Program-made: the position numbers and the translations under genes | Shown: positions 38,524 to 60,200 of the stretch, piece after piece | Position numbering within the stretch: the stretch's first letter is position 1 | How the letters are laid out: every line of letters starts with the position of its first letter | Notes under the pieces: generated by a model | Told to the model about the DNA's origin: nothing | What the model saw: only the letters and a program-made list of their open reading frames with translations | Database searches by the model: none | Assembly: GCA_030595795.1 (NCBI GenBank) | Contig: JAUVCH010000002.1 | Location: forward strand, 7,216 to 71,215 | DNA from: Gammaproteobacteria bacterium | GTDB lineage: Bacteria > Pseudomonadota > Gammaproteobacteria > GCA-001735895 | Length of the DNA: 64,000 bases | Direction: 5' to 3'

Positions 38524-38632
38524 TATGTAAGTTATTTATTACCCATTATGGTTATAAATAGTTATTATTCCCCTATATATTTTGGAATGCAGGTTGCTAT
38601 ATATTTTGGATAAAAACAATGAAACCGAAGAC

Positions 38633-39295: not shown

Positions 39296-39338
39296 GTTGT
39301 TGATAGCAATCTAATCGACCTTTCGAGGGGAGTATCTG

Positions 39339-39545
39339 GTGAAAAAGACAAATGAGACGTTAAACAATAATAGACGGGATTTCATAAAGAAATCAGCTCT
39401 GGTTGGTGTGGGTGTCGCTGCCAGTACGGTCGCAAGTGGCGAGGCCATGGCGGCAGTGACGACTGACACTGTCGAAACCGGGAAAAATAAAGGCTATCAA
39501 CTAACACAACATGTTGCTGATTATTACAAATCAGCAGCAAGCTAA
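39339..39545 (+). CDS. Small twin-arginine signal protein ('formate dehydrogenase region TAT target' type)
   Basis: 68 aa, NNNRRDFIKKSALVGVGVAA Tat motif. GTG start after GAGGGGAG. Confidence 0.55.
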   Translation: MKKTNETLNNNRRDFIKKSALVGVGVAASTVASGEAMAAVTTDTVETGKNKGYQLTQHVADYYKSAAS

Positions 39546-39563
39546 ACGCGAGGAGATTGAAAT

Positions 39564-42443: not shown

Positions 42444-42461
42444 CTAGCGAGGAACTATAAA

Positions 42462-43055: not shown

Positions 43056-43156
43056 AGGGTAATCAATAATAAAATAGTTTGGCCGGGTTTTGATAATAAA
43101 AGATATCAGAACTCGGCTTGATTTTTGGCTAAGAGACAATAACGAGAGGTTGTCGC

Positions 43157-44245
43157 ATGCTTAAACAGAATATGGTCAGCCCTGTGGGAGATATCTTGAA
43201 ATTTTTATCGATATTGATGCTGCTGGTTATCACCGTCATTTCACAGCCGACATTTGCTGCTGTAGAAGGTGAACCCGAAGGTGTCATCATGAAGAATCCC
43301 GGTGCGGATTTATGGCGTGAGGTTCGGCAAAGAAATATAGCCATAGAAGGCATTAGCCAGATCAAGAGTGTCGATAGCGGAATTTTGATTAACCCAGAAG
43401 CTGACCGTTGGACCAGATTTCGAGTTGACCAGTTAGTAAACTATGCTGCAATCATATTGGCTGGATTGGCGCTATTGCTGCTAGTATTCTATTTGTTGCG
43501 CGGAAAAATAAAAGTTGAGGGTGGGCTGTCGAGACAGATGTTGCACCGATTTAGTGACTACGAGAGAGTATTACACTGGACCCTGGCGATTGTCTTCCTC
43601 TTTCTAGCTATAACGGGATTAACCCTGTTGTTAGGAAGAACTTTCCTGATCCCCCTGTTTGGACAGGAATTTTTCTCCTTACTGGCTTCGTCGAGTAAAG
43701 AAGGTCATAACTTATTCGGGCCAATTTTCTTTGCATCCCTGATAATGATGATACTTCGATTTGTGAAAAGGAATATTTATGAAAAAGGAGACCTTACCTG
43801 GCTGGTAAAAGGAGGTGGGATTATCGGCAAGTCTCATGTTTCTGGTGGATTTTTTAACATGGGTGAGAAGACCTGGTACTGGATAGTTATACTGATCGGG
43901 CTGCTTATTTCCGTCAGTGGGTTGATTCTGGTTTCCCCTAACTTTGGTCAGGGGCGAGTGATCATGGAGTTGTCACACATCGTGCATGTGATTAGTGCAA
44001 TTATTCTGATCGCGGTTTCTTTCGGACATATGTATTTGGGTTCGGTGGGTACAGAGGGCGCCCTTGAAAGCATGAAAACTGGCTACGTTGATGTTAATTG
44101 GGCAGAGTCACATCATGACCGCTGGGCAAAGGAGTGCCGCGACAATAATAGAGTGATCTCGGCCGATAAATTTAACAGGTTGCAGGGTAAGATTAACAGT
44201 GGAACGGAAGAGTCCGGCTCGGTAGCAGTGGAGGGTAATAAATAA
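43157..44245 (+). CDS. Formate dehydrogenase cytochrome b (gamma) subunit with N-terminal periplasmic extension
   Basis: 362 aa. Signal peptide plus about 90-aa extension, then a 4-TM b-type cytochrome core with conserved His (RVLHWTLA..., HIVHVISAIIL...GHMYLG). Confidence 0.8.
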   Translation: MLKQNMVSPVGDILKFLSILMLLVITVISQPTFAAVEGEPEGVIMKNPGADLWREVRQRNIAIEGISQIKSVDSGILINPEADRWTRFRVDQLVNYAAIILAGLALLLLVFYLLRGKIKVEGGLSRQMLHRFSDYERVLHWTLAIVFLFLAITGLTLLLGRTFLIPLFGQEFFSLLASSSKEGHNLFGPIFFASLIMMILRFVKRNIYEKGDLTWLVKGGGIIGKSHVSGGFFNMGEKTWYWIVILIGLLISVSGLILVSPNFGQGRVIMELSHIVHVISAIILIAVSFGHMYLGSVGTEGALESMKTGYVDVNWAESHHDRWAKECRDNNRVISADKFNRLQGKINSGTEESGSVAVEGNK

Positions 44246-44883
44246 TGGCAACTTTCATTGATGGGTTCTTGTGGTATTTTGCGCTGGCTGTTTTTGTAAT
44301 TGGGGTAAGCGGAAACCTGGTCACGATCATTCTGGCCAGTCGGAAAGTAGATTTATCGGTACCGCGCGATTCAGCTTTTTCGGGCGCCTTAAGAACCTTA
44401 TTTTCTCGCTTCCTGCCAGATCAACATATGTTGTCTCGCATCGGTATACAGGTTGTGGCGGGTTATATGTTTCATCTGGGATTATTCATCTTATTGTTTT
44501 TCGCCGCGCCGCATGTTGCTTTTCTCGAAGAAAATATTCTTGGGTTTGGCTGGACAGCGGCACCTCACTGGCTCTTTATAGTAGCGTCCCAATTTGCCTT
44601 TCTCGGCATAATCATGCTGTGGCTGTATCGTATGACGAATTCGGTATCACGGTTAATTTCAAAACTGGACGATCATGTTGCAACCATATTGACATTTCTA
44701 GTGATGCTTAGCGGTTGCCTGGCATTGCTGGAGTCGTTCGAAACATTGCGCCTACTACACCGGTTTCTAGTTGAGTTACTGTTAATTTATTTCCCCTTTA
44801 GCCGTTTAATGCATGCATTTACTTTTGTTCCTAGTCGGCTTTTCACCGGTGCATGGTTTGGCCGAAGAGGTGTTGATTCATGA
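44245..44883 (+). CDS. NarI-fold membrane cytochrome b (DsrM/HdrE/HmeC-like)
   Basis: 212 aa, 5 TM helices, His in TM2 (MFHLG, PHVAF) and the C-terminal PFSRLMHAF motif matching the NarI-family PF(T/S)RLVH heme-ligand motif. Start overlaps the stop of fdh-gamma (ATAATGG). Confidence 0.6.
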   Translation: MATFIDGFLWYFALAVFVIGVSGNLVTIILASRKVDLSVPRDSAFSGALRTLFSRFLPDQHMLSRIGIQVVAGYMFHLGLFILLFFAAPHVAFLEENILGFGWTAAPHWLFIVASQFAFLGIIMLWLYRMTNSVSRLISKLDDHVATILTFLVMLSGCLALLESFETLRLLHRFLVELLLIYFPFSRLMHAFTFVPSRLFTGAWFGRRGVDS

Positions 44884-44899
44884 TAACCGGAGGTCAACT

Positions 44900-46168
44900 A
44901 TGAGTGAGAGACTGGAACGAGGCCTTAGTAAGCTAAGGTCTCAAATTGATCCAAAGGTTAAATCGTTTTTCTCGAGCTGTGTGCACTGTGGAATTTGTGC
45001 AGAATCCTGTTTGTTTTTTACTGAAACCCGTGATCCTCGCTATACACCTATTTATAAAACCGAGCCATTGCGTAAGGTCTGGCAACAGGAATATACGTTC
45101 TGGGGAAAGTTAGCCAGTAAGTTGGGGATAGCAGCGCCGATAGCAGAGCAGGATTTAGCCGACTGGGAGGAACTGGTTTACGATGGTTGCTCGATGTGCG
45201 GTCGCTGTAGCATGGTTTGCCCAATGGGTATAGATATTGCGCAGATTATCTTCAAGGTCAAAACTGGTCTGTCGGCGGCAGGATTCTCGCCACCAGATCT
45301 TGCCGAAACCACTCAACGTGCAGTCGATATTGGTAGCCCGATGGGTGTGAAGCTCCCCGCATTGCAAGCTCAAATAGGCCATATCGAAGAAGAAATAAAT
45401 TTAAAAATCCCGGTCGATGTCGAAGGGTCAGAGTATATGGCGCTGCTGTCGTCGATGGAAATTATGTATTTCCCGGAGTATATTTCGGCCCTTGCAAAAA
45501 TATTCCATCAGGCTGGCGTTAGCTGGACACTTTGCTCCGATGCGTTTGAGGCAACAAACTCCGGTCTGCAAATTGGTAATACCGAGGTAGCCGGGGTTTT
45601 GGTCGAAAGGATTGTTGCCGGTGCCGAGAAGCTGAAGGTGAAAAACGTGATTAGCCCGGAATGCGGTCACGCTTATACAGCGATTCGATGGGAGGGGCCT
45701 AATTTCATCGGCAGACCTTATTCCTTTAAAGTCGTGCATATCCTGGAACTACTCGACGAACTACTCCAGTCAGGCCGTCTGAAAACAACGGGTAAGGAAT
45801 CTTCTCGACTCACTTTTCACGATCCGTGTTCTATCGTGCGTAGGGGTGGGGTTGAGACGCAACCACGTCATATATTAAATGCTATAGCAGAAAATGCGGT
45901 TGAAATGACCGAGCACGGTGCTATGAACTGGTGCTGTGGCGGTGGTGGTGGCGTCAGTGGCAATGAAAGAGCAGAGCCGCTAAAACTAAAAGTCTTTAAC
46001 CGAAAAAAATCACAGCTCGAGGAGCTTGATGTTGAAACTATTGTAACTTCCTGTTCCAATTGCCGATTGGTCATCGAAGATGGTCTGGAAGCAAATGATA
46101 TGGAAATTAATATAGTCGGTTTAACCGAAATGCTTGCTGACCACCTGGTTGTAGATAATTCTCAATAG
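44900..46168 (+). CDS. CCG-domain iron-sulfur oxidoreductase (HdrD/DsrK/GlpC-like)
   Basis: About 420 aa. Two ferredoxin-like motifs (CVHCGICAESC, CSMCGRCSMVCP) followed by Cys-rich CCG-type regions (HDPCS..., NWCCGGGGG, TSCSNCR). ATG 44900 after GGAGG; ORF track start 44813 overlaps the upstream gene. Confidence 0.7.
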   Translation: MSERLERGLSKLRSQIDPKVKSFFSSCVHCGICAESCLFFTETRDPRYTPIYKTEPLRKVWQQEYTFWGKLASKLGIAAPIAEQDLADWEELVYDGCSMCGRCSMVCPMGIDIAQIIFKVKTGLSAAGFSPPDLAETTQRAVDIGSPMGVKLPALQAQIGHIEEEINLKIPVDVEGSEYMALLSSMEIMYFPEYISALAKIFHQAGVSWTLCSDAFEATNSGLQIGNTEVAGVLVERIVAGAEKLKVKNVISPECGHAYTAIRWEGPNFIGRPYSFKVVHILELLDELLQSGRLKTTGKESSRLTFHDPCSIVRRGGVETQPRHILNAIAENAVEMTEHGAMNWCCGGGGGVSGNERAEPLKLKVFNRKKSQLEELDVETIVTSCSNCRLVIEDGLEANDMEINIVGLTEMLADHLVVDNSQ

Positions 46169-46184
46169 GTTCAGATTATAGTAT

Positions 46185-46496
46185 ATGAATGATCAGGAAA
46201 TGGGTGACGAAGAGCTAGATGTACAATACCGTGCGATGATCGACCAGTTTATCGATCAATCCAATCAATTTGCTGAAACTAATAGCCCGGAGAATGTCGG
46301 TATGGCGCTCTTATTTGCGGCTTCTCGGTTTAATGCTTTTGTGGTTTCGCAGCACGCGGAATCATTAGCAGATTATGAAAAAGACCTTGGTAAAGCGAAG
46401 TCGTTTTTCTCGACACAATACGGGGAAATGCTCGACGAAAATCTGGATGATTACAAAAAAACATACGATAAGTATCACCAGTTTATGAAACAGTAG
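46185..46496 (+). CDS. Small acidic cytoplasmic protein (DUF3144-like)
   Basis: 103-aa ORF 17 nt downstream of the HdrD-like gene. Family assignment from memory is weak. Confidence 0.4.
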   Translation: MNDQEMGDEELDVQYRAMIDQFIDQSNQFAETNSPENVGMALLFAASRFNAFVVSQHAESLADYEKDLGKAKSFFSTQYGEMLDENLDDYKKTYDKYHQFMKQ

Positions 46497-46665: not shown

Positions 46666-47208
46666 ATGAAAAAAAAATATATCAATAAAATATCTCTCGT
46701 AATCGTGCTGATCGCCTTAAGCGTTGTGCCGTTCCTTGCGAAGGCGGCTGAAGTTACACAAGAGCAGATAAAAGGACTGGATGAACAGGTTCAGGATATC
46801 AAGGAAGATGTACTCGATCTAACAACCGAGCTAAGCCTGCTCGAAGAGAAGCTGTTATTTCCCTCCAATACTCAGGTCTCGCTGTTTGTTTCTCTCGATA
46901 GCGGTAAGAAGTTTGTACTTGATGCCATGCAGATTAAGCTTGACGACAAGGTTGTCGCCAAGCATTTATATACTTTCAAGGAGCTAGAGGCTTTAAGGTT
47001 AGGTGGTGTTCAGCGCATTTATACAGGTAATATCAACACTGGGGATCATTCGATGATAGCCAGTTTCTTAGGTCGCGATGCTTCGGGCGAGCAATTCAAA
47101 GGCGTGGCTGATTTTACGGTTAACAAAGCGGTTGGGCCAAAATTTGTCGAAATCAAAATTACCGGCGGCGACTCGGCTGATCAGACGATCAGTTTCCAAG
47201 ACTGGTAA
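46666..47208 (+). CDS. Secreted coiled-coil protein, first gene of the TPR/Ton-like cluster
   Basis: 180 aa. Signal peptide KISLVIVLIALSVVPFLAKA|AE, N-terminal coiled coil, C-terminal beta-rich domain. Reminiscent of the small periplasmic proteins that lead TonB2-type clusters. Confidence 0.5.
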   Translation: MKKKYINKISLVIVLIALSVVPFLAKAAEVTQEQIKGLDEQVQDIKEDVLDLTTELSLLEEKLLFPSNTQVSLFVSLDSGKKFVLDAMQIKLDDKVVAKHLYTFKELEALRLGGVQRIYTGNINTGDHSMIASFLGRDASGEQFKGVADFTVNKAVGPKFVEIKITGGDSADQTISFQDW

Positions 47209-47214
47209 GTAATC

Positions 47215-49290
47215 TTGAAGCGGAATGTAATATTTATCGCCGCTTTTTTCTGCAGCCTGTCAAGCTATGCGGCAAGTGGGCTAAAAGATGTCGAGCTGCG
47301 TGACCTGTATTTCGGCGAGGTGCTTTTTTATGCCTATCAGGATAAGTATTTTGAGGCGCTGGAACGGCTCGATAGCGAACTAATACAATATTACAGGGTA
47401 GACGAATCCAATCTTGACCCGTTATCCCAGAATCTGGGACAGGCCGAGTTTTCGGTCGGCGATATAGAATTGCAATATCGTATGGATAAGCGCGCTGGAA
47501 AAGCCATACAGGCGGTGCTCGGCAGCGGTATCAACCTGGCAATGCGGAATCAGGCTGCGTTGCAGCTGGCGCGAATGTATTTTCGTAAGAATGATGCGGA
47601 AAGAGCGCTATATGCGCTCGATCTGATACACAATAGAGTCGATATGACGAAGTACCCGGATAAGTCAGTCGACGATCTTCGGGGTGTAGAACCGGAAAAC
47701 TTCAAGATAGATGTTCTTTATCTGCGTGCTCTGGCCTATATTAGCACCGGGCAGTTTACCAATGCTGTCGAAATTCTCGATTCCCTGCGTAATGAAAAAT
47801 CAATAAAAGGCTATGTATTGTATAACCTGGGTATTGCGCTGATTCAGGCTCAACAGGAACTACAAGGATTAGAAGTACTCGATGAGCTGGGCATGCTGGA
47901 AACCCAGGATAAAAATCTGCAGGCACTCAAGGATAAAGCCAATTTAAAGATCGCCTATCGATTGCTCGATTCCGGCAATGCGGAGCAGGCTCGGATCTAT
48001 TTTCAACGAATTCGTCTCGATGGGCCATACTCAAATCAGGCGCTGCTGGGCGCAGGCTGGGCTGAAGCTGCACTGGATCGCTATGAGCGAGCTCTGGTAC
48101 CCTGGACAATTCTGCACAAAAGAGAAAAAACCAATCATTCGGTACAGGAATCGTTAATGTCGGTGCCTTATGCCTATGGGAAATTACAGGCCTACGGCAA
48201 ATCGGCCAATATGTATGCCGAGGCAATGGATATGTTTGCCTATGAAATATCCCGGCTCGACGACTCAATAAAGGCCATTCGAGGTGGAAAATTTCTCGAA
48301 GCATTAGTCGATGAGAAATCCAGACAGGATGAAAACTGGGTAGTAAATTTGCGAGAATTGCCCGATGCGCCGGAAACCCGTTATATCCTCGATCTGTTGG
48401 CATCGAGTGATTTTCAGACTTCGTATAATAACTACCGAGATTTGGCGGATTTGAAAGTACGAATCGAAACCTGGTTGGCTAACCTTAAGGTTTTCGAGGA
48501 AATTATTGATATTCGTCGAGCCTATCAAGAGCCTTTGCTACCCATAGTCGGGGAGCGTTTCGAGAAGATCGATGCCAGGGCAAAACTACGCCTGGAACAA
48601 CGAAACAGTCTGGCTGATAAAATTAAGAATATATTGATTGCGCCGCGACCAGATTTTCTGGCGACGGCTGACGAACGCCTGGCGTCGGATCGGGTAACGG
48701 CATTCGAGCAATACATAGCCGAGCACCCTGGAAAAGTCACTGGTGAACAGATCTATCGCGTTAAACGCCTGCGCGGTTTGTTGTCGTGGCGCTTGCAAAG
48801 CGAATATGACCAACGCCTAACCGAAGCTTATGATCATTTGTTGTCGCTGGATGAGACTACCGAGGCATTCAAAAAACGATATGGTTCTTTTATTCGTACC
48901 CGCCAGGCTGCGACGCAAAGTTATGAAGGATATCAATCAGTCATTAGACAGCTCCGCACCGGATTGTTTTCTGCGCAACGAAAGTTGAAAGGTGTTATGG
49001 CCAAACAGGGCAGGTTCCTCGAAACTATGGCGGAGAATGAGCTTGATCGTCGCCGCAAGCGCCTCGAAGATTATCAGATTAAGGCGCGATTTGCGTTGGC
49101 AGAAAACTATGACCGAGTAACCAAGGCGGATCAGGATAAGTTAATCGAGGAACAGAATCAGCTTCGGGAGGAAAAGCAAAAGCAACTTGAGCTTGAAAAA
49201 GAAGCCCAGAAGGCCGAGGAGTCGGCGCCATCAGCGGAAGATAGCTTAGATAAGGGTTCTTCAATTTTGAATAATGTACCCGCCAACTGA
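47215..49290 (+). CDS. Secreted TPR-repeat protein with C-terminal K/E-rich coiled coil
   Basis: 691 aa. TTG start, signal peptide, repeated A/L/Y-rich 34-residue helical-hairpin pattern. C-terminal EEQNQLREEKQKQLELEKEAQKAEE. Confidence 0.6.
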   Translation: MKRNVIFIAAFFCSLSSYAASGLKDVELRDLYFGEVLFYAYQDKYFEALERLDSELIQYYRVDESNLDPLSQNLGQAEFSVGDIELQYRMDKRAGKAIQAVLGSGINLAMRNQAALQLARMYFRKNDAERALYALDLIHNRVDMTKYPDKSVDDLRGVEPENFKIDVLYLRALAYISTGQFTNAVEILDSLRNEKSIKGYVLYNLGIALIQAQQELQGLEVLDELGMLETQDKNLQALKDKANLKIAYRLLDSGNAEQARIYFQRIRLDGPYSNQALLGAGWAEAALDRYERALVPWTILHKREKTNHSVQESLMSVPYAYGKLQAYGKSANMYAEAMDMFAYEISRLDDSIKAIRGGKFLEALVDEKSRQDENWVVNLRELPDAPETRYILDLLASSDFQTSYNNYRDLADLKVRIETWLANLKVFEEIIDIRRAYQEPLLPIVGERFEKIDARAKLRLEQRNSLADKIKNILIAPRPDFLATADERLASDRVTAFEQYIAEHPGKVTGEQIYRVKRLRGLLSWRLQSEYDQRLTEAYDHLLSLDETTEAFKKRYGSFIRTRQAATQSYEGYQSVIRQLRTGLFSAQRKLKGVMAKQGRFLETMAENELDRRRKRLEDYQIKARFALAENYDRVTKADQDKLIEEQNQLREEKQKQLELEKEAQKAEESAPSAEDSLDKGSSILNNVPAN

Positions 49291-52200
49291 TGTCTGTCAA
49301 AAATCACAAATGTATCAATTTCTGTAAAGCGGCATTAGTCCTGGCGCTAGTTTGGATGCTGGCGTCTTGCGCCACAGGAACCGACGGTACAACCCTGGCC
49401 AGTCTGGAAAATGTCGAATTCGAAGTAATTGACGAAAAGGTTACGGACAGTCTCGAAAAAGCACTGGCAAGCTATCAGGACTTTTTGGAGAATACCCCCG
49501 ATACCGAAATGACGCCGGAAGCCTTGCGTCGCCTGGCTGATCTGAAAATTCAGAAAGAGCAATTCAACGAGAATACTCAAATTATCGAGTCGGAGGCGCT
49601 CGCAACTACAAGCACCCAAAGAAACGTTACTGGTACAGAGACAAGCACTGTGCAGTCCATCACCGAGATAGAGATGCCGGAAACTGTGTCCGTGCCTGAT
49701 AATGGCAATACCTCAGAACAACAAAGCATTACCGATCAGGCGAGCCCTATTGCGGCAATCGACGAAAGTGATAAAGCTTTCGACGAAAGGGCGGGTGAGA
49801 AAATCGAAATCAGCGACTCTAGTCAACAGCTAGAACTGCCTGAAGACGAGAGTGCTGAGGTAGGACAGGACTTACAAACCGTCGGTGCAATGGAAGCCAT
49901 CGAGATATATAAGAACCTACTGAAAAACCATCCGTTATTTGAACGTAATGATCAGGTGGTTTACCAATTGTCGCGCGCTTATGAGGATACCGGGCAGATA
50001 GATATCGCCATGGATACGATCATATTGCTGCTTTCGAAATACCCGAACTCGCGTCATGTCGATGAATCGCAGTTTCGACTGGCTGAATTCTATTTCTCCC
50101 GTAAAAAATATCTCGATGCCGAAGAGTCATACCAGGCTGTGGCGGCGCGTGGAGAAGACACGGAGTTTTATGAGTTATCACTTTATAAACTCGGGTGGTC
50201 TTATTTCAAACAGGAATTATATGAAGAAGCATTACAGGCTTTTATCAAAATGCTGGACTATAAAATCGAGAATGGTTTTGAACTGGATAATATTGAAAGC
50301 CAGATAGATGGAAAAAGGGTTGAAGATACTTATCGAGTTATCAGTTTAAGTTTCTCCTACCTCGAAGGGCCTCAGTCCATTGTCGAATTTTTTAACCAAA
50401 ATGGCCCTAGATCTTATGAGTCGAGTATCTATAGCCACCTGGGAGAATACTACTTTTCTAAGAGGCGTTTTGCCGATGCAAGCAATACCTATAAGACTTT
50501 TATTGAGCGTAATCCTCTATCCGCCGAATCGGCTTATTTCAGTATTCGTATTATCGAAATTTACGACAAAGGTGGTTTTCCCAAGCTGGTTATAGATACC
50601 AAAAAGGCCTTCGCCAAAACATATAGCCCCGATTCCACCTACTGGACATATTTCGACATTAATGAACATCCAGATATCCGCTTCTATGTGAAGACTAATC
50701 TGACTGATTTGGCGAATCACTATCATGCTTTGTATCAGAATAAGAAGTTGGAGAAGGCAAAGGGTGAAAATTATGAGGAGGCGATATACTGGTATCGGGA
50801 ATTTCTGGCCTCTTTCTTTGATGACTCCGAAGCTCCGGGTCTCAATAACCAACTGGCCGGTTTGATGCTAGAGCAAAAGGACTTTTTCCAGGCGGCGGGT
50901 GAATACGAGCGCACTGCGTACGAATATCCACCCCATGATGGATCGTCCGGTGCGGGCTATGCGGCTGTCTATGCGTATCGAGAGTACTATAAAGTTGTTG
51001 AACAATCACAGAGATACAATATCAGCCGGGAAATTGTGCGCAGTTCGATACGATTTTTTGAGGTATTTCCCGATCATAAACATGCCCCGGTGGTACTTGT
51101 TGCCGCTGTAGAAGACCTATATGGACTCGAAGATTTTGAACGTGCCATCGTCTATGGTCAGCGTGCAATCGAAACTTACCCCCGAGCCGACCGGAAATTG
51201 CTGCGTTCTGCCTGGATGGCTGTGGCGCATTCTTCATTTAATATCGCTAATTACCAGGGGGCTGAAATTGCCTATAGCGAAACACTGATTCTTACCGATA
51301 TAAATGACAAGAGTTACGAATCACTTAACGAAAACCTGGCTGCCTCTATTTATAAACAGGGTGAACAGGCGCTCAAGCTGGAAGACCATCAGTTAGCCGC
51401 CGATCATTTCCTGCGGGTCGCTAAAGTCGTGCCCAAATCTAAAATTCGTCCGACAGCCGAATACGACGCCGCCACTTCGTTGTTAATACTGAAACAGTGG
51501 AAGAATGTTGCCAACTTGCTTGAAGGCTTCAGAAAACGTTTTCCTCAGCATAAACTGCTACCGGATATCACCAAAAAACTGGCAATTGTTTATAAGGAGG
51601 ATGGTCGTTATTTGCTATCGGCAGCAGAATTTGAGCGTATAGAAAGAGAAAATCCAGAAAACGAAGCCTTGCGCCGCGAAGCCTTATACCAGGCTGCTGA
51701 ACTGTATGACCGGGCTGACGCTAAAGGTAGAGTTTTATTGACCTATCAAAAACTGGTTAACTATTTTCCCGATCCAATCGAAGAGGCGCTAGAAACACGC
51801 CAGAAAATGGCCGATATTTATCAGCAGCAGGGTAATCAAATTGAATATCTGGCTCAGCTCGAAAGAATTGTCGAGATCGACGCCACCGGTGGCAGTGGAC
51901 GTACAGACAGAACCCAATATCTTGCCGCGCATGCCGCGTTGGTATTAGCAGTTCCCAAATGGGAAGCATTTACGCGAGTGGCCCTTGTGGAGCCTTTCAA
52001 GGCCAATTTGGCTAAAAAGAAAAAGCGAATGAGTATTGCTATCGATTCGTTTGCAAAGCTGGTTGATTATCAGGTTGGCGACGTTACTGCTGCGGCAACT
52101 TTTTACCTTGCCGAAATATATTTTGACTTTAATGTGTCTCTGGTCGAATCAGAAAGACCGACTAACCTGAATGATGAAGAACTGGAAGAATATGAGCTGA

Positions 52201-52469
52201 TTATCGAAGATCAGGCTTATCCTTTTGAGGCAAAGGCTATCGATGTTCATGAAAAAAATATGGAATTACTGGATATTGGGGTCTATAACGAATGGATCGA
52301 TAAGAGTATCGCAAAACTATCGGTGTTGTTGCCCGCGCGATACGCTAAAACTGAGCAAGACAGTACTGTTATCACTTTGATACAGCCTCCGAATATCGTC
52401 AATGCAGCGGTTAATGAAACCGAGGACTCGACAGTAATCGAATCCTTACCGGAACCGGTGGAGCAATAG
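49290..52469 (+). CDS. Large TPR-repeat lipoprotein with acidic disordered N-terminal region
   Basis: 1059 aa. Lipobox MLASC, about 200-aa D/E/S/T-rich segment, then about 800 aa of TPR-like repeats. Start overlaps the upstream stop. Confidence 0.6.
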   Translation: MSVKNHKCINFCKAALVLALVWMLASCATGTDGTTLASLENVEFEVIDEKVTDSLEKALASYQDFLENTPDTEMTPEALRRLADLKIQKEQFNENTQIIESEALATTSTQRNVTGTETSTVQSITEIEMPETVSVPDNGNTSEQQSITDQASPIAAIDESDKAFDERAGEKIEISDSSQQLELPEDESAEVGQDLQTVGAMEAIEIYKNLLKNHPLFERNDQVVYQLSRAYEDTGQIDIAMDTIILLLSKYPNSRHVDESQFRLAEFYFSRKKYLDAEESYQAVAARGEDTEFYELSLYKLGWSYFKQELYEEALQAFIKMLDYKIENGFELDNIESQIDGKRVEDTYRVISLSFSYLEGPQSIVEFFNQNGPRSYESSIYSHLGEYYFSKRRFADASNTYKTFIERNPLSAESAYFSIRIIEIYDKGGFPKLVIDTKKAFAKTYSPDSTYWTYFDINEHPDIRFYVKTNLTDLANHYHALYQNKKLEKAKGENYEEAIYWYREFLASFFDDSEAPGLNNQLAGLMLEQKDFFQAAGEYERTAYEYPPHDGSSGAGYAAVYAYREYYKVVEQSQRYNISREIVRSSIRFFEVFPDHKHAPVVLVAAVEDLYGLEDFERAIVYGQRAIETYPRADRKLLRSAWMAVAHSSFNIANYQGAEIAYSETLILTDINDKSYESLNENLAASIYKQGEQALKLEDHQLAADHFLRVAKVVPKSKIRPTAEYDAATSLLILKQWKNVANLLEGFRKRFPQHKLLPDITKKLAIVYKEDGRYLLSAAEFERIERENPENEALRREALYQAAELYDRADAKGRVLLTYQKLVNYFPDPIEEALETRQKMADIYQQQGNQIEYLAQLERIVEIDATGGSGRTDRTQYLAAHAALVLAVPKWEAFTRVALVEPFKANLAKKKKRMSIAIDSFAKLVDYQVGDVTAAATFYLAEIYFDFNVSLVESERPTNLNDEELEEYELIIEDQAYPFEAKAIDVHEKNMELLDIGVYNEWIDKSIAKLSVLLPARYAKTEQDSTVITLIQPPNIVNAAVNETEDSTVIESLPEPVEQ

Positions 52470-52473
52470 GGTT

Positions 52474-53085
52474 ATGATAAAAACATTTCATACTGGGGTG
52501 GTGATATTAGGCTGTTTGATCTTAATTTCCTGTGCCGGGGGTCAGGCACCGCGTGTTGAAAAAGCTGCGGCAGTAAAGTTATCCCCACCGCCAGAAGATT
52601 CGGCATATATTAATCTGGACGCAGATATTGAGTCGGATTTCCTCGATGCAGTAGACAGGATGGAAAATAGTGACTATGTATCGGCAATAGAAAAGCTGGA
52701 ATCGGTTATAGGTCGCGAAAAACGGTTGATTGCACCGTTTGTCAATATTGCGATTGCGTATCGCAAAACAGGTGAAGTTGAGCAGGCAGAAAAAAATCTG
52801 GCCAAAGCCCTGGAGTTGGACCCTGTGCATCCCGTTGCGAATAACGAGCTGGGTTTAATTTACCGTCAGGCCGGAAAATTTGAGGAAGCCAGAGCGGTCT
52901 ATGAGCTGGTGATCAAAAACCATCCAGATTCCACTGCGGCAATGATTAATCTAGGCGTATTATGTGATTTGTATATGCACGATTATGAATGTGCCCTCGA
53001 ACAATTTGAGCGTTATCTGGCGCTAAATCCGGATGATAAGAAAATTTTCATCTGGGTAGCTGATGTAAAACAAAGAGTAAAATAA
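52474..53085 (+). CDS. Small TPR-repeat lipoprotein
   Basis: 203 aa. Lipobox LILISC, three to four clear TPR units. Confidence 0.6.
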   Translation: MIKTFHTGVVILGCLILISCAGGQAPRVEKAAAVKLSPPPEDSAYINLDADIESDFLDAVDRMENSDYVSAIEKLESVIGREKRLIAPFVNIAIAYRKTGEVEQAEKNLAKALELDPVHPVANNELGLIYRQAGKFEEARAVYELVIKNHPDSTAAMINLGVLCDLYMHDYECALEQFERYLALNPDDKKIFIWVADVKQRVK

Positions 53086-53104
53086 TAGCGGAGGTACTAA
53101 TATT

Positions 53105-53389
53105 ATGTTAATTAGAATTCTATTTAGTTTAGTAATTGCCGGAGTAACCTTGCAAGCGCCCGTCATGGCCCAGGAAAAAAAAATTGATTCCGACGTTAAG
53201 GAACTATCTGGCATCTCGATCATAGGTAATCAGGAAGCGCCCAAATCGCTTTACATTATACCCTGGCAAAACTCCGAAGTTGGGGTGGCCAGCAGTTTAC
53301 AATCAGGTCTGTTTGACGACAGTATGAAACCTTTGTCCAAAGAAGTGTTTCTGAGAGAGCTTAATTTTTACGAATTAAGTCATAATTGA
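53105..53389 (+). CDS. Small secreted protein of the Ton-like cluster
   Basis: 94 aa with signal peptide. Confidence 0.4.
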   Translation: MLIRILFSLVIAGVTLQAPVMAQEKKIDSDVKELSGISIIGNQEAPKSLYIIPWQNSEVGVASSLQSGLFDDSMKPLSKEVFLRELNFYELSHN

Positions 53390-53431
53390 TAATCGATATA
53401 ATATGAATAGTGACACATTGAGGGTTTCGTA

Positions 53432-54442
53432 ATGAGTGAACACAATACCAATCAGAGTGAGCTGGATACTTCAGTAGACACAGAGGCTCCGAGCGGTCAG
53501 GAAAATTTGAGCGAGCCGAGCACTACGGACGGTAATGAGATTACCGAATCTCCAGATGTAGCAGAAATTCTGGAGTCTTCTGGAGTCGTGGATGCGGCTG
53601 GTGGCTTCGACCCCCTAAGCTATGTTGAAACCATCGTGTCGTTTTTCCAGACTGGTGGTGCGTTTATGTATCCAATACTGATCGTCTTATCGGTGGGGTT
53701 AGCGATATCAATCGAGCGTTACATCAAACTCACTTACGAGCGCGGGATTAATCGCAAAATGTGGAATAAGCTGCAGCCAGTTCTGGCTGAAGCAGATTTT
53801 GACACGGCTCGAGAATTAGTTGCCCTCGACGATAAATCGACCATCAGTAAATTAATGTCTATGGGCCTGGCAAGAGAAGGGCTGGTCAGGCGAAGGGACG
53901 ATATCGAAATCGCCATGGAAGAAAGTATGATGGAAATTATTCCTCAACTCGAAAAACGCACACCTTACATCGCGTTGTTTTCAAATATTTGCACCCTGCT
54001 TGGACTGCTTGGTACGATTATGGGCCTGATCGAGGCTTTCACCGCTGTCGCGAATGCCAATCCTGCAGAAAAAGCGGATTTGCTATCAGCAAGTATATCG
54101 GTTGCGATGAATACTACCGCTTTTGGTTTGATGGCGGGTATCCCTCTTTTGATAATCCATGCATTTTTGACTTCGCGAACCGGAGAAATAATAGACAGCC
54201 TGGAAATGGCGTCGGTTAAAACACTGAATGTCATCACCTCTGCCAGTAAGCGTAGGGGTGATAAGAATCTATCTCCCCCAGAAGTAACAATGAGTGATTT
54301 TACGGATACGGGTACTTTTATGGCTAATGTTGAAAAAGATGTTACCCGGGTTAGTGAATCGACCGCAACACCAGGTGTTGAAGGTTCAGCATCAGAGCCA
54401 GGCGTAGCTGCTGATACAGATGTGCCTAAAAAGCCCGATTAA
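53432..54442 (+). CDS. MotA/TolQ/ExbB proton-channel family protein with acidic N- and C-terminal extensions
   Basis: 336 aa, 3 TM helices. Conserved ExbB core ...ALFSNICTLLGLLGTIMGLIEAF...AMNTTAFGLMAGIPLLIIHAFL. Confidence 0.8.
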   Translation: MSEHNTNQSELDTSVDTEAPSGQENLSEPSTTDGNEITESPDVAEILESSGVVDAAGGFDPLSYVETIVSFFQTGGAFMYPILIVLSVGLAISIERYIKLTYERGINRKMWNKLQPVLAEADFDTARELVALDDKSTISKLMSMGLAREGLVRRRDDIEIAMEESMMEIIPQLEKRTPYIALFSNICTLLGLLGTIMGLIEAFTAVANANPAEKADLLSASISVAMNTTAFGLMAGIPLLIIHAFLTSRTGEIIDSLEMASVKTLNVITSASKRRGDKNLSPPEVTMSDFTDTGTFMANVEKDVTRVSESTATPGVEGSASEPGVAADTDVPKKPD

Positions 54443-54467
54443 GCGACCAGCGCAATAGATAATAATC

Positions 54468-55022
54468 ATGAACAGAAGGAAACACGGTAAATCCAGGGAA
54501 GCTCCGGAGCTTGATATCACGGCATTCCTGAATTTAATGGTTGTGCTGGTGCCTTTTCTTCTTGTCTCGGCAGTATTTTCTCGTATCACGATACTGGAGC
54601 TCAATATGCCTCCGGGCGCTGGTGCGGCAGCAGCTATCCCTCCCAAGATTAGTATTGAAGTTGTAATTCGTGACGAGGTCATGGAAATTAGTGACGGGCG
54701 AAAGGTAATCGTTCGTTTTCCGAAAATTGGAAATACTGACCCCAAAACACTCGAGGAGGATCCCAGAGTCTATGACCTGATTCAGCTCACTAATTATCTG
54801 TTAAAGATTAAGGCGAACTATCCCGACAAGACCGATTCCATTATTTTAATGGAACCTGGCATTGAATACAGGCATCTGGTCACTGTTATGGATGCGATGA
54901 GAAATGCTGAAATTCCTTTGAATGAGGCTTCCGCCGGTGGCACGGAAGGGGCTGGCGAAGTTCAACCCGAATTTCAGAAAATCGAATTGTTCCCCGATAT
55001 ATCGATAGGCGATGCACCATGA
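54468..55022 (+). CDS. ExbD/TolR-family protein (long form)
   Basis: 184 aa. N-terminal LDITAFLNLMVVLVPFLLV single TM typical of ExbD/TolR, periplasmic domain. Confidence 0.65.
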   Translation: MNRRKHGKSREAPELDITAFLNLMVVLVPFLLVSAVFSRITILELNMPPGAGAAAAIPPKISIEVVIRDEVMEISDGRKVIVRFPKIGNTDPKTLEEDPRVYDLIQLTNYLLKIKANYPDKTDSIILMEPGIEYRHLVTVMDAMRNAEIPLNEASAGGTEGAGEVQPEFQKIELFPDISIGDAP

Positions 55023-55510
55023 GAAACAGTAATCGTCGTATCGCGCGTATGGGGCGAAGCCGAAAAAAATTACCTGGCATGAATCTGACATCGCTGATGG
55101 ATGTATTTACTATTCTGGTATTTTTTCTGCTGACAAATTCGGCAACTAACGAAGCACTGGAGGCGCCTAAATCGATTTCCTTGCCCGCATCGGTGGTAGA
55201 GACCAAGCCACAGGAAACGGTAGTGATACTGGTGACGCCTGAAAATATACTGGTTCAGGGTAAAATAGTTTCGAGCACAGTAGATGTTAATAATAGCCCG
55301 GCAGTTGTGGTGGAAGCGATAAAGAAAGCGTTGTTAGTACAGCGAAGCAGGGCAATCGGTATCGATGTAAGCAAAGAACCTGAAGTAAACATATTGGCCG
55401 ACAGGAAAATACCTTTCAGTCTGCTGAAAAAAATTATGTCCAGTTGTACCAGTGCAGGATATAGCAAGATCTCGTTGGCTGTAATTCAGAAAGCATCGCA
55501 GAGTTCGTAG
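55019..55510 (+). CDS. ExbD/TolR-family protein
   Basis: 163 aa. MNLTSLMDVFTILVFFLL TM helix, ExbD-like periplasmic domain. 4-nt overlaps with both neighbours. Confidence 0.75.
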   Translation: MRNSNRRIARMGRSRKKLPGMNLTSLMDVFTILVFFLLTNSATNEALEAPKSISLPASVVETKPQETVVILVTPENILVQGKIVSSTVDVNNSPAVVVEAIKKALLVQRSRAIGIDVSKEPEVNILADRKIPFSLLKKIMSSCTSAGYSKISLAVIQKASQSS

Positions 55511-55516
55511 CTCACC

Positions 55517-56923
55517 ATGGACGATATCAGTAAAAGAAAGAAAAAAGTCAGGGCCAAGCAAAAGCGAGCCTGGCGACTCCTTTTGGAATGCAAAAGTCAA
55601 CAGCGGGATATTGAGGCTGAACATGTCAGGTTACTAAAGAAAAGAGTGCGTTACGACGCGCTTATTGAGGTATCGACAAATCTGGCCAGATTAGACGCGT
55701 TAGGCGCGTCAGATCTTTTCTGGGGTGGGTTGGGTGAAGAGAGGCGTGGGCGAGATCACCTCGCTCGCGTGCATAATCTGGTTACTGAATACGAGAGTCG
55801 ACTCGAAGCCTCAATACAGGCTCGCCAGGATATCTGGAATAAAATTCAGGTACTCAACGATAAAACTAGTGAATACAAAGAGCAGGGCCAGGTACTACTC
55901 GAAGTAGAGGAAGAATCTCGTGATGAGTTTGTTATTGATCGGGAACCAGGGGGGTCGTTATATCGTACCTCAGTCATGCCCTGGACGGTTCATGGAGAGG
56001 ATGAGAAGCGCTTTCGAAAAATATTACTGCTGATATTGTTTTTAACTATTTTGCTGGGTTACCTGGTTCCTTCGTGGAATATAACGGTAGTCGAAAGAGA
56101 GGTAAAAATAGAAGTGCCTGAGCGCCTCGCCAGGCTATTGCTTGAGAAGGCGCCACCACCACCTCCACCGAAGAAAGAAGAAGTCGAGGAAGAGAAAGAG
56201 GAAGAGGAAGAGCCAAAACCGGAGAAAAAAGAGGAGAAGAAGGAAGAAATTGAGAAGAAGCCTGAACCCGAGCAAAAGCCGAAGCCGACCAAGGAGAAAA
56301 AGCCGGTCAAGAAAAAGGCCCAAAGTGCCGGTGTGCTGGCCTTCAAGAATGACTTTGCTGGGTTGCTGGATCTCGATAGTGATGTAGATAGCAAGCTGGG
56401 AGCTAAAGCCAGTCTTACCAATCTTGGGGCCACTGCAAAGAAAAGCACCAGATCAATAATTACTTCTCAGTCAACATCGGGCTCAGGTGGAATCAATACT
56501 GCGGCGATTAGTAAAAATGTCGGCGGCACGGGCAGTGGCCTTGAAGGAGTTGGCTTCTCTCGTGTCGAAAGTACAATCGGCACAGAATATGCGACTGACG
56601 ATCGACCTTTAAGTGAAGGGCCAGGACCTTCCCGTACAGACGAAGAAATCCAGATCGTATTTGATAAATACAAATCTGCGCTATACCGAATTTATAATCG
56701 GGAACTACGTAAGAATCCCACCCTACAGGGCAAAATGGTGCTACGTTTGACTATTGAGCCCGATGGTAAGGTATCCGCTGCTAGTGTGGAATCTAGCGAT
56801 ATGGATGCCCCGGATCTGGATAAAAAGATTGTCGCCAGGGTAAAGAAGTTTAAGTTCGGAGCGAAGGAGGGAGTGCCTACCATAACGATTCTCTTCCCCA
56901 TTGACTTTCTACCCGCAAACTAG
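55517..56923 (+). CDS. TonB-family energy transducer-like protein with long Pro/Glu/Lys-rich linker
   Basis: 468 aa. Cytoplasmic coiled-coil N-terminus, TM helix ILLLILFLTILLGYLV, PPPPPPKKEEVEEEKEEEEEPKPEKKEEKK... linker, S/T/G-rich segment, C-terminal TonB-like domain (...KMVLRLTIEPDGKVSAASVESSDMD...). Confidence 0.7.
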   Translation: MDDISKRKKKVRAKQKRAWRLLLECKSQQRDIEAEHVRLLKKRVRYDALIEVSTNLARLDALGASDLFWGGLGEERRGRDHLARVHNLVTEYESRLEASIQARQDIWNKIQVLNDKTSEYKEQGQVLLEVEEESRDEFVIDREPGGSLYRTSVMPWTVHGEDEKRFRKILLLILFLTILLGYLVPSWNITVVEREVKIEVPERLARLLLEKAPPPPPPKKEEVEEEKEEEEEPKPEKKEEKKEEIEKKPEPEQKPKPTKEKKPVKKKAQSAGVLAFKNDFAGLLDLDSDVDSKLGAKASLTNLGATAKKSTRSIITSQSTSGSGGINTAAISKNVGGTGSGLEGVGFSRVESTIGTEYATDDRPLSEGPGPSRTDEEIQIVFDKYKSALYRIYNRELRKNPTLQGKMVLRLTIEPDGKVSAASVESSDMDAPDLDKKIVARVKKFKFGAKEGVPTITILFPIDFLPAN

Positions 56924-57232
56924 GGCGGAATCATCTGCCTATTCTTCCCGCTTCGCAAATAAACGTAAATTTTCGGTTCTGCTGGCATGTATAATGAAAA
57001 ATTTAACATTATTAGTTAAACTATTGAAAATAATAAGGAAAGCGTAACTATTTTTATTGTTGTTCAGACCTCATCGTCTATACTAAATTGTGCAATATGC
57101 CCCAGTGGCCCGCGTTGCTAAATGAAAGGCCTTTTCTATTGAATTAAAGATCCGATAACCAGAACTGACACTGTTGTGAAAAAAATATTATCAGCACTTC
57201 TGAGTTGGTTCGCCCTTAAAGCTGAGGGCGAA

Positions 57233-60200
57233 ATGCTCTCAGATGCCCGGGAATCCAATACCAGAACTACAGGCAGATCGAAGTCTGGGTTATGGCTGCT
57301 ACTTTTGTTGATGCTGTTTGGGGTGGCATCACCGGCGCTTGCGGGTGAGTTTTGCGTACAAAACCCCAGCTTTTTTGGCGTCGACGATACTGGTGACGGC
57401 ATTAACGATTTTGGTATTGTTGATGGTGAAGATCCTGCCACTGTGCAATTCATTAACGACAACAATGTTACTCAGATCACTATCGATGGTGATTGTACTT
57501 TTCGCAACTGGACGGCTAGCAACCCGTTAACTGTCACCCTCAATTTTCAGACTAGCGACCCGTCGATTTATCTCATCACGTTTGATAATGTGGTTTTTAC
57601 CGGCAACATGGCCTGCGCCAGCATCGACCATCGTATCTGGTTTGTTAATGGCGACCCAGCTGATTTTAATAGCTCCTGTCAGGATTTGTTTATACCGGTC
57701 GAATCTATCAATAAAGCTGTTCCTGCCGGCAAAACCACGGTTGGTATTGGTGAAGTCTTTACCTACACGCTGAAGGTACCCGTTTTATACGACCCGGCGA
57801 ATGACGTGGTGATTAGTGATTCGGGTTCGTTGAACGAGTTGCATAGCATTGTCGTTACCGATGATATCAACGAAATTGGCGCTAACCTGACCCTGGTAGG
57901 GGCACCTACCGTAGTGTGGGCGGCCGGTAGTTCTCAAAGCGGATCTGTATCGCACAATTTTACTAATAGTGCAGGGCTACTTACTTTTGAAATTCTGCCA
58001 ACTGGTATAGCACAGGTGTCAATAGGCGACCAGTTCGAAATCAAAATTACGCTTTCGGTCGACGATACTAATGTTATCGGTACGCAGTTTTTTAATACGG
58101 CAAGGTGGGTATTCGGGCGGTTAATCGAGTTAGACCCGAATGATGATAATGGTGATGGCGATCTCGAACTGACTTTCTTCGACCCCTTACCCGGTGAAAA
58201 TGGTGTCTCCGAACTATTAACTATCGGTGCCCCGGATCTGACTGTTACCAAGTCGAGTCCTGACACCGCGTTAAATATCGGTATACAGGGGACATTTTTT
58301 ATCGATGTGCAGAATACGGGTAATACCGATGCCTGGGATTTCACTATCATCGATGAAATTCCGGGTGCCGCGGATAATCCGGCTCTACCGTTAGTCGCGG
58401 GTATGTGTCAATTCGATCCGAGTGCCACGGTCACCGCACAGATTTTTGAAGCCGATGGTACGACGGCTGTCAGCCCTGTGTTAACAGCTGGTGCCGATTA
58501 TTCGATTAGTTTCAATAATGCAATACCCCTGCCCTGTGAGTTGACGCTAGTCTTTGACAGTTCCGGCCCCAATGCGGCTGTGCTCGCGCCCGGCGAACGT
58601 CTGATCATTAGCTATCAGTCAGAACTCGACAGTGCTCCACCGATGGATCAGGATGGTGCCTTACTAACCAATGTCGCGGGTGCGACCCAATGGTATAGCT
58701 CGGATCCCAACGGTACGCCAATAGCTACTGTTACTAATGAAACGCTAACTGATGGTACGCCTGGTGACACCACCGATCACGAATCCAGCTATACCATTAC
58801 CGCTGGTTTATCGGGTTACTTTTTTACCAAGTCCGTGCAAAACATTACTACCGGGGCGAACCCAGCAAGCACCGCAGCGGCCGGTGATACCCTGCGGTAC
58901 CAATTGCGCGTATTTAATATCGACCAGACGATCTCTTCTATCAACATTGTCGACAATGACTTAATCGCTGCTAATTTTGATACAGGTTCTTTTTCGATTG
59001 TCTCTTCGAATGCGGTTTCAGAAAATTACGACCCAGGCACCGGAACATTAACCATCGATGGTGGCAGCGTGTCAGCGCTGAATTTTCTGCTGGTCGAATA
59101 CGATATTAATCTCGCGGCAGGCCTGACTAATGGCGCAGTCGTATCCAACCAGGCGTCAATGACAGCGACCGGCACGATATCGCCTACCACGTTAAGTGAC
59201 GATCCCAATATTAACGGTGTCGATGACCCAACCACTCTACCCAATCCAGACCCAACCGTCATTACCATACTGCAGCCCGGCCCTCTGCTGAAAACCGGCG
59301 GCCCTGCAACAGCAACCATTGGTAATGAAATCACCTACAGAATCACGGTGCCAGAAGTTCCGCTTGCAACGCCGTTATACGATGTACGCATGCTGGATAA
59401 TTTGACGACCTCGAGTGCCGATCTGGAATTTGTTAGCGCGACGGTTGTTTCCGGTGGTAGCTGGACTCTGACCAATACCGGAACCAGTAATAACCTGGTC
59501 ATCGAAGATACCGGAGCAGGTATCGATATACCGACCAGCGGACAGGCGGTGATCGATGTCACGGTACGCGTATCGAACACCGTGAATAATCAAATTGGAG
59601 ATAGCTTCAACAATACGGCAACCTATACCTACAACCGCACCAACAATCTACTTGCGTCGCAGACACTGGGTAGTGGTGATACCACCCCTGTAACTACAGT
59701 AATCACTGAACCCGATATCTCGACAATTACCAAAATAGCTGACAATACGACACCGACCGCCGGCAGCACCATTCGCTATAGCGTGACGTTGACAGCAACT
59801 AGTGGCGCTAATATTTCGGACGTATTCGATGTCACTCTCAGTGATTCTTTGGATCTGGGGCTGGCATACGCAGGTAGCCCGACTGTTACAATCGGCAGTG
59901 GTGTCGGGAGTGATAATATCATTACCGACCCGGATGTCACCGGTGATGGTATCACCATACCGCAGTCGCTGGTGTGGAGCACGGTAGAAGCGGATATCGA
60001 CATCGATGCTGGCGAAACCATTATCATCGCCTACGATGTGCTTGTGCTGAACAATGTTTTGGCGAACCAGTCTCTAAGCAACAGTGTCATCGCGCAATGG
60101 ACCGGCATCGACGGTGTCAACACCTTCGAGCGCACCGGCATAGACGGTGTTGGCGGCGTGCTTAACGATTACGCGGTCGCACCTGTCGTGGAAACTGTAA

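Follow-up and report, generated by a model that had tools for sequence, protein, structure and literature searches.

The 64,000-nucleotide (nt) stretch analysed here, hereafter the window, comes from a gammaproteobacterium (positions 7,216 to 71,215 of contig JAUVCH010000002.1, assembly GCA_030595795.1) and carries a cluster of nine genes, g1–g9, which by gene order, protein sizes and domain architecture is a stand-alone Agl/Glt core, a kind of gene set described in 2011. We find that these nine genes belong to a larger conserved eleven-gene unit, completed by a giant exported protein of the CLIPPER/DUF11 type (g10) and a large OmpA-domain protein (g11). The core adjoins both in roughly 160 loci, and both are therefore candidates for its cargo. 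On balance, we consider it probable that the motor work of this core goes to the g10/g11 adhesin pair and not to nutrient import. The nine-gene layout itself was already known; our analysis adds g10 and, with it, a conserved unit of eleven genes.

The nine open reading frames (ORFs) lie on the + strand at window positions 46666–56923, all in the same direction and separated by intergenic gaps of −4 to +42 nt, each of them present where a preliminary description of the window, made from the sequence, had placed it. That description took the layout to be atypical, a view that does not survive comparison with the literature, as the same order and size pattern was published by Luciano et al. (2011; PMC3169522) as a core complex consisting of gltC, gltD, gltE, gltG, aglR, aglQ, aglS and one additional gene. 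Its genes were found side by side in a number of Gammaproteobacteria, in one betaproteobacterium and in Geobacter, with a function reported as unknown, and follow the order gltC–gltD–gltE–small gene–aglR–aglQ–aglS–gltG (PMC3169522). In Thioalkalivibrio HL-EbGR7, for example, the published Table S3 runs from GltC (Tgr7_0543, 620 amino acids (aa)) through GltD (0542, 922 aa), GltE (0541, 190 aa), a skipped locus tag (0540), AglR (0539, 222 aa), AglQ (0538, 168 aa) and AglS (0537, 170 aa) to GltG (0536, 535 aa), and this order and these sizes recur in Methylibium, Teredinibacter and Geobacter (PMC3169522). The genes g2–g9 match this pattern in both respects, with g5 in the skipped position. Given the order and size pattern, the domain architecture and the shared lineages, we assign the cluster to this published complex. 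Later work called this core ‘a basal transport machinery’ and left the type of cargo open (Wartel et al. 2013, PMC3858216).

To place the cluster among its relatives, we surveyed about 160 loci, 80 from a genome scan anchored on the GltD-like protein and 80 from a metagenome scan anchored on g11. The GltD-like proteins of the genome loci have identities of 46–83%, and the relatives include Gamma- and Betaproteobacteria, Gallionellaceae, Sideroxydans, Desulfuromonadales and a Thioalkalivibrio metagenome-assembled genome (49% identity), g3 being 46–50% identical to its counterparts in the clusters of the last two. Among the 80 genome loci, practically all with a long enough contig have g1–g9 in the same order, an arrangement far beyond chance, so that g1 and g5 belong to the unit no less than the seven genes that carry names. 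Downstream of g9, a giant + strand ORF follows in 41 of the 49 genome loci that have at least 1.5 kb of further sequence; in the other 8, mostly from Desulfuromonadales, g11 lies immediately upstream of g1. Eleven loci with g11 upstream of g1 hold sequence beyond it, among them 7 of the 8 that lack a downstream giant, and in every one the ORF before g11 ends in the g10 C-terminal domain (E value about 1 × 10−100). These neighbourhoods therefore yield the order g1–g9–g10–g11 in one group and g10–g11–g1–g9 in the other, a circular permutation in which linkage is kept.

The metagenome loci give the same picture from the other end. The g10 gene lies directly upstream of g11 in 56 of the 59 loci with upstream sequence, the remaining three being in-frame g10–g11 fusions or carrying a split g11, and g9 and the motor genes are present in 21 of the 22 loci with more than 9 kb upstream. 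At least 26 of the metagenome g10 proteins have the N-terminal domain of the type found in the window, and a search started from homologues of the giant protein recovered two further loci in which g1–g9 are followed by one or more DUF11 proteins and then by g11. Short giant ORFs in five loci (L007, L008, L015, L026 and L030) seemed to be followed by a different gene; we rejected this, the next ORFs being continuations of g10 set off by ambiguous bases or frameshifts. The preliminary description named no cargo or partner gene, and this has to be revised, with the giant CLIPPER/DUF11 gene directly downstream and conserved beside the cluster; the comparative-genomic check of co-occurring cargo that it proposed points to g10 and g11, both of which accompany the nine-gene set in related loci.

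Separately from this linkage, some relatives hold a second partial set, composed of g3, g4 and g6–g9 without g1, g2 and g5, or an extra g1–g2 pair directly upstream of the full set (L056 675–6997, L071 592–7001, L030 1933–4336 and L035 2130–4699). These partial and extra sets resemble the duplications reported for Marinobacter and Teredinibacter.

In the window, g10 (57233–64000, + strand, cut by the window end) encodes a Sec-exported protein of at least 2,255 aa. It is missing from the ORF list because ORFs that run off the end of the window are not listed, and the preliminary description does not mention it. Its frame is open from position 57143 to the last base of the window (64000); the probable ATG start at 57233 is preceded by a GAGG motif and yields a typical signal peptide, with an in-frame GTG at 57176 as an alternative start. 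The 2,255 residues available match the DUF11/CLIPPER family (PF01345, 93.5 bits), the isopeptide-forming fimbrial D2 domain (TIGR04226, 206 bits, in eight stretches) and DUF11-type repeats (TIGR01451, 139 bits, in seven stretches), and the fold matches pilins and PDB entry 9ifr. The protein thereby combines the signal peptide, the tandem CLIPPER/DUF11 CnaA-like stalk domains and the great length that define CLIPPER/DUF11 fibrillar adhesins, and it looks like an isopeptide-bonded adhesin of this kind, the isopeptide bonds being predicted. No C-terminal sorting domain of the type IX secretion system (T9SS) is seen in the available part. The 57–64 kb region, poor in listed ORFs, was also considered as a site of RNA genes; it has no Rfam match and is occupied by a single long ORF that the window end truncates.

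Relatives with called genes have a protein of 3,376–3,529 aa with CLIPPER matches after g9, and a conserved C-terminal domain of about 220 aa is kept by g10 in 59 loci. The giant ORFs after g9 fall into two N-terminal families of 13 and 27 loci, and DUF11 is found both in the g10 of the window (family A) and in five of the five family-B examples tested by Pfam. The spacer between g9 and g10 is 309 nt long and contains no + strand terminator-like site. It does contain an AT-rich block (56994–57066, + strand) in which 72 of 73 bases are identical to those of the relative L001, the flanks being about 80% identical, and inside this block lies a promoter-like site (57003–57031). The block is possibly the promoter or operator of g10, which, to judge from these features, probably has a regulated promoter of its own.

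The eleventh gene is known from the relatives and is expected beyond the window end in the source organism. Its product is about 1,700 aa long and has its own signal peptide and three tandem OmpA-like peptidoglycan-binding domains, one N-terminal. The remaining residues, about 1,200, have no match in Pfam, NCBIfam or the PDB sequences, and the last 600 or so display a Gly/Tyr-rich alternating pattern of the sort found in outer-membrane barrels. We located g11 at 15105–20234 in L083 and 16582–21663 in L084, upstream of g1 in L058–L079, and in L085–L164, and among the loci examined it is present only beside a DUF11 giant and a Glt-like cluster. In two of them (L104 3281–14974 and L089 1–8166), the DUF11 giant and the OmpA-domain protein share one uninterrupted frame, of 3,898 aa in L104, which points either to a true fusion or to an error of assembly.

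The motor and its transducer correspond to g6–g9, for which the Pfam and NCBIfam matches agree with the initial assignment of one ExbB/TolQ protein, two ExbD/TolR proteins and a 468-aa TonB-like protein. The first, g6 (53432–54442, + strand, 336 aa), is an AglR-like proton-channel subunit of the MotA/TolQ/ExbB family (PF01618, 85 bits) with three membrane helices (residues 68–86, 179–197 and 224–242), equally distant from TolQ (33 bits) and ExbB (31 bits) among PDB sequences. It is extended, as had been remarked, when set against the 222–226 aa or so of most relatives, and owes this to extensions, acidic and probably disordered, of about 60 aa (N terminus) and 70 aa (C terminus); among the relatives examined, these are common only to the closest, L001 (329 aa), the three others with called genes having 222–226 aa. 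The next two genes, AglQ-like g7 (54468–55022, + strand, 184 aa; PF02472, 50 bits) and AglS-like g8 (55019–55510, + strand, 163 aa; PF02472, 53 bits), encode two ExbD/TolR-family subunits in the positions of AglQ and AglS in the published core. An Asp precedes the single N-terminal membrane helix of g7 (LDITAFLNL), and in g8 an Asp is found inside the membrane helix (LMDVFTILVFF).

The last of the nine, g9 (55517–56923, + strand, 468 aa), is a GltG-like force transducer. A cytoplasmic, basic and coiled-coil-like region (residues 1–165) leads into one membrane helix (about 165–190) that contains no His, and from there into a periplasmic linker that is first Pro/Glu/Lys-rich (PPPPPP/EK-rich, 212–270) and then Gly/Ser/Thr-rich, before the protein ends in a TonB-like AgmX/PglI C-terminal domain (about 380–468). 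It passes the model of this domain (NF033768, 68 bits against a cut-off of 40, residues 374–464) and aligns to the GltG model NF033760 from the membrane helix to the C terminus (E value 1.6 × 10−19, model positions 342–645 of 650), which bears out the closeness to gliding Agl/Glt machines noticed at the outset. The only TonB-type models it passes are the generic TonB_C (PF03544, 24.7 bits against a cut-off of 24.6) and tonB_Cterm, and its matches to PDB sequences are confined to low complexity. The equivalog models of the Ton and Tol systems are all far below their cut-offs, be it exbB (37.5 bits against 206), ExbD (17–20 against 153–216), TonB (16–21 against 265–315), tolQ (48 against 221), tolR (23 against 127) or tolA (16.9 against 59, a weak similarity with an E value of 0.003), and the set is, as had been supposed, not a canonical ExbB–ExbD–TonB system.

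The five genes upstream of the motor encode candidates for a scaffold. The first of them, g1 (46666–47208, + strand, 180 aa), is not among the seven core genes of Luciano et al. and encodes a conserved protein, either exported or anchored in a membrane, in which a hydrophobic N-terminal helix and a coiled-coil helix (residues 32–63) precede a transthyretin/TssJ-like β-sandwich (69–179) that is modelled with confidence. The family is large and unnamed (5,492 proteins at E ≤ 0.001 in one search, 1,211 cluster representatives in another). Neither g1 nor g5 has a family match in Pfam or NCBIfam, and hydrophobic N termini are found in g1, g2 and g5. The GltC-like g2 (47215–49290, + strand, 691 aa) is an exported helical/tetratricopeptide repeat (TPR) protein whose position and size fit the homologues of GltC (MXAN_2541), namely Tgr7_0543 (620 aa), Mpe_A1224 (634 aa) and TERTU_3747 (640 aa). 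The preliminary description counted it as one of three TPR proteins, which is right for g3 and g4; the TPR matches of g2 are weak and below the Pfam cut-offs.

Both g3 and g4 have the lipobox expected of the lipoproteins that they had been taken for (LASC and LISC, respectively). The GltD-like g3 (49290–52469, + strand, 1,059 aa) has the acidic, disordered N-terminal linker that had been seen in it (residues 28–200, net charge −29), followed by TPR, YfiO, YbgF-like and BamD-like repeats, with 85.5 bits for the ybgF/CpoB model against a cut-off of 90.1. Its position and size fit the GltD homologues of 922–964 aa, and its own homologues, more than 2,500, are nearly all unnamed TPR proteins from uncultured Gammaproteobacteria. 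The GltE-like g4 (52474–53085, + strand, 203 aa) has strong TPR matches and fits, in position and size, the GltE homologues of 190–243 aa; its match to the GltE equivalog model (E value 2.8 × 10−8) is nonspecific, one among many to TPR models. Glt-specific NCBIfam matches were not obtained for g1, g2, g3 or g5 even at E ≤ 10. In Myxococcus xanthus, GltD and GltE are described as TPR proteins with disordered N termini whose mature chain starts from Cys1 (which we read as lipoproteins), and GltG as crossing the membrane once, with a long disordered linker in the periplasm and a C-terminal, TonB-like domain through which it binds GltD; the architecture of g3, g4 and g9 fits these descriptions. 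Finally, g5 (53105–53389, + strand, 94 aa) encodes an exported protein that by position, between gltE and aglR, is the ‘additional gene’ of the published core, its place being that of the locus tags skipped in Table S3 (Tgr7_0540 and Mpe_A1227). Its mature part is nearly invariant across 74 loci and carries the motif KELSGISIIGNKEAPKSLYIVPW...RELDFYELS.

From what is known of the 5:2 motors of the Mot/Tol/Exb families, of the TonB and TolA transducers and of the AlphaFold-based model of Agl–Glt (PMC11761067), we infer how the parts of this unit could make contact and in which direction work could flow. Together, g6, g7 and g8 would make up a 5:2 motor of the inner membrane that converts proton flow into movement. 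The membrane helix of g9 would dock on this motor, and its long Pro/Glu/Lys- and Gly/Ser-rich linker would span the periplasm and carry the movement to the TonB-like C-terminal domain, which in turn would engage a scaffold under the outer membrane composed of the lipoproteins g3 and g4, the GltC-like g2 and the small conserved g1 and g5. By analogy with GltF, which is modelled to do so, g5 may add one of its conserved strands to the TonB-like domain and so dock there. The work would be delivered to g10 and g11, so that the giant adhesin is either driven across or along the outer membrane or kept anchored and tensioned, with the conserved C-terminal region of g10 as the putative docking domain. 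We consider it most likely that such a machine serves to export the giant adhesin or to anchor it, through or at g11. The core is the ancestral module that was elaborated into the Agl–Glt gliding and Agl–Nfs spore-coat machines of Myxococcus. More tentatively, and as a proposal that we would not yet back, the core with g10 and g11 may be an unrecognised system, driven by the proton-motive force, that exports, anchors or moves giant isopeptide-bonded adhesins across or on the proteobacterial outer membrane, and this may be the ancestral function behind the gliding and spore-coat machines.

Several observations weigh against assigning the motor to the adhesin pair. That the apparatus is proton-driven and serves a function other than import, as the preliminary description proposed, is a proposal supported by homology and gene context. 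Gene linkage implies functional association and is silent on which of export, anchoring or movement is powered. The 309-nt separation and the conserved promoter-like region mean that g10 may be regulated separately, its N-terminal family differs between close relatives, and both its C terminus and the g11 of the source organism fall outside the window. At the level of single proteins, the equation of g2, g3 and g4 with GltC, GltD and GltE is drawn from the published table and from architecture (lipoprotein, disordered N terminus, central TPR), and the putative barrel nature of g11 is suggested by composition and sequence pattern. The transducer g9 scores 69.9 bits against a GltG equivalog cut-off of 650, leaves model positions 1–341 unmatched and is without FHA domains.

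Other uses of the motor can be set against the same evidence. The cluster shares homology with the motor core used for gliding in Myxococcus and couples, genetically, a giant filamentous adhesin to a proton motor, the logic that reviews give for T9SS gliding, so that the motor could propel g10 along the cell as GldLM/T9SS does with SprB or Agl–Glt with CglB. We consider such a surface-motility machine unlikely, as the genes required in Myxococcus and known as Group A (gltA, gltB, gltF, gltH, gltI, gltJ and gltK) are missing in and next to the cluster, the sole GltJ match being to the common C-terminal domain of g9, and g9 has, in its cytoplasmic part, none of the FHA domains by which GltG is tied to the GltI/MreB platform. 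Moreover, with three peptidoglycan-binding domains, g11 looks more like a fixed anchor than a mobile one, and the core alone has been argued to be insufficient for gliding, its carriers not being known gliders (PMC3169522). Equally doubtful is a Tol–Pal-like paralogue that maintains envelope integrity by tethering or remodelling the outer membrane and peptidoglycan, in which g11 would stand for Pal/OmpA and g3 for CpoB/YbgF, and g10 would be structural and not a cargo. The near-threshold YbgF/CpoB match and BamD-like repeats of g3, the OmpA/Pal-like domains of g11 and a g6 as near to TolQ as to ExbB speak for it, whereas neither TolB nor a Pal lipoprotein is found in the window or the loci, the similarity to TolA is weak, the Tol equivalogs stay far below cut-off, and specific, exclusive linkage to a pilin-like repeat protein with a signal peptide is foreign to Tol–Pal.

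Less probable again is the transport or deposition of a surface polysaccharide, with g10 as an unrelated neighbour. The Agl–Nfs machine does move a carbohydrate polymer, that of the spore coat, and sugar polymers have been proposed as a possible class of cargo for the core (PMC3858216), but neither the window nor the annotated relatives have a glycosyltransferase, Wza/Wzc or other such gene beside the cluster, and its conserved neighbours, in two permuted orders, are the proteins g10 and g11. An ordinary energy system of the TonB2/TonB3 type, powering receptors for nutrient uptake that are encoded elsewhere, would account for the ExbB-like, ExbD-like and TonB_C-like domains, and extra accessory proteins are known from the TonB2 systems of Vibrio. 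We nevertheless rate it very improbable. The ExbB, ExbD and TonB equivalog models score 17–38 bits against cut-offs that span 135–402, the C-terminal domain of g9 is of the AgmX/PglI type and its membrane helix is devoid of His, and the conserved neighbours in the other loci are g10 and g11. No TonB-dependent receptor was found among the eight large ORFs scanned at window positions 1–36000, in line with what had been reported for the window, or among the annotated genes in the loci of four relatives; receptors may be encoded elsewhere in the genome. The last candidate, anti-phage defence of the Zorya or another MotAB-based type, recalls the MotA/ExbB-like proteins and partner genes of Zorya and is the least probable: the cluster, conserved both vertically and widely, keeps fixed envelope partners and does not sit in variable defence islands, and PADLOC returns no match for g6–g9, its sole match being a marginal TPR one on g4. 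With PADLOC blank on the motor and transducer proteins, we therefore dropped this reading. Service to the g10/g11 pair is the reading that we favour.

The nine-gene cluster is flanked by oxidoreductase genes upstream and by g10 downstream. The upstream genes (35847–46496) encode a molybdopterin oxidoreductase (959 aa), 4Fe–4S, cytochrome b561-type and CCG/Fe–S proteins, a nitrate-reductase-delta-like chaperone and a DUF3144 protein. This oxidoreductase cluster is syntenic in the relative L001 and not in L002, and is therefore not part of the motor system. Elsewhere in the window, a CHASE2-domain adenylate/guanylate cyclase (751 aa, − strand) is divergent from a 1,111-aa FecR-domain and TPR protein (+ strand) at 17027–22921, and the two may be a signalling pair; at 2827–5451 lies the gene of a fused TRAP-transporter membrane protein (874 aa, DctM and DUF3394).

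The Agl/Glt core has been recognised since 2011 as ancestral to the gliding and sporulation machines of myxobacteria, and its role in carriers that do not glide was left open. The linkage to g10 and g11 in about 160 loci, in two permuted orders, turns this into a concrete and testable cargo hypothesis. If that hypothesis is true, it would explain how Gram-negative bacteria place or power very large, isopeptide-stabilised fibres on the outer membrane, which lacks an energy source; a motor of the Ton/Tol family would join the engines of secretion and display, in a new pathway for one or the other; and an evolutionary route would lead from the handling of adhesins to gliding. If it is wrong, the cluster is a routine further example of a gene set already described.

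Compared with known systems, the cluster shares with ExbB–ExbD–TonB and Tol–Pal a proton motor of the 5:2 family and a transducer that crosses the membrane once, has a Pro-rich linker and ends in a TonB/TolA-like domain, and with TolQ–TolR–TolA–TolB–Pal–CpoB also the CpoB-like repeats, here in g3. It differs from both in its two distinct ExbD/TolR paralogues, in the long cytoplasmic N-terminal domain of g9 and in equivalog scores far below cut-off. The two ExbD paralogues, together with the three TPR proteins and the GltG-type C-terminal domain, also set it apart from the Vibrio-type TonB2 system, and the general Pfam and NCBIfam scans of the window proteins, which were not aimed at TonB2, turned up no Ttp-specific model. 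To the T9SS and gliding apparatus of Bacteroidota (GldLM, SprA, SprB), the likeness is one of analogy, with a proton-driven 5:2 motor, a very large outer-membrane protein and giant adhesins on both sides; apart from a weak TPR match to PorW, homology to Gld, Spr or Por proteins was not detected.

With the Agl–Glt and Agl–Nfs machines of M. xanthus, the cluster has in common the logic of an AglR5–AglQ/S motor, the GltG transducer and a periplasmic scaffold of GltD, GltE and GltC. In Myxococcus, this scaffold reaches an outer-membrane complex that presents the adhesin CglB (Agl–Glt) or moves a polymer (Agl–Nfs), and where Agl–Glt has the GltABHK porins and the vWA lipoprotein CglB, we find an OmpA-domain giant and a CLIPPER fibre. 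Lacking the Group A genes and the FHA domains of GltG, the cluster is not a gliding machine of the Myxococcus type. Its closest counterpart is the published core complex, which it resembles in gene content, order and size pattern, in the GltG-type AgmX/PglI domain, in having one TolQ-like and two TolR-like proteins and in taxonomic range. The differences are that the published list has seven genes and one more, whereas here a ninth gene, g1, is equally conserved; that the AglR-like g6 bears, in this lineage, its two acidic extensions; and that the core is linked to g10 and g11. We found no prior report of a DUF11/CLIPPER or OmpA-domain partner of the core in the open-access papers searched, so that the linkage may be unreported; in a 2026 review of gliding, both the core complex and the Gammaproteobacteria go unmentioned. 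As for the adhesin, the described CLIPPER/DUF11 proteins, such as B9T28_05395 of Acinetobacter silvestris (bioRxiv 10.1101/2025.04.25.650565; PDB 9ifr), differ from g10 in that its OmpA-like domains reside on a separate protein, g11, and, whereas a motor context is absent from the survey of this family (bioRxiv 10.1101/2025.04.25.650565), the adhesin gene described here is tied to a proton-motor cluster.

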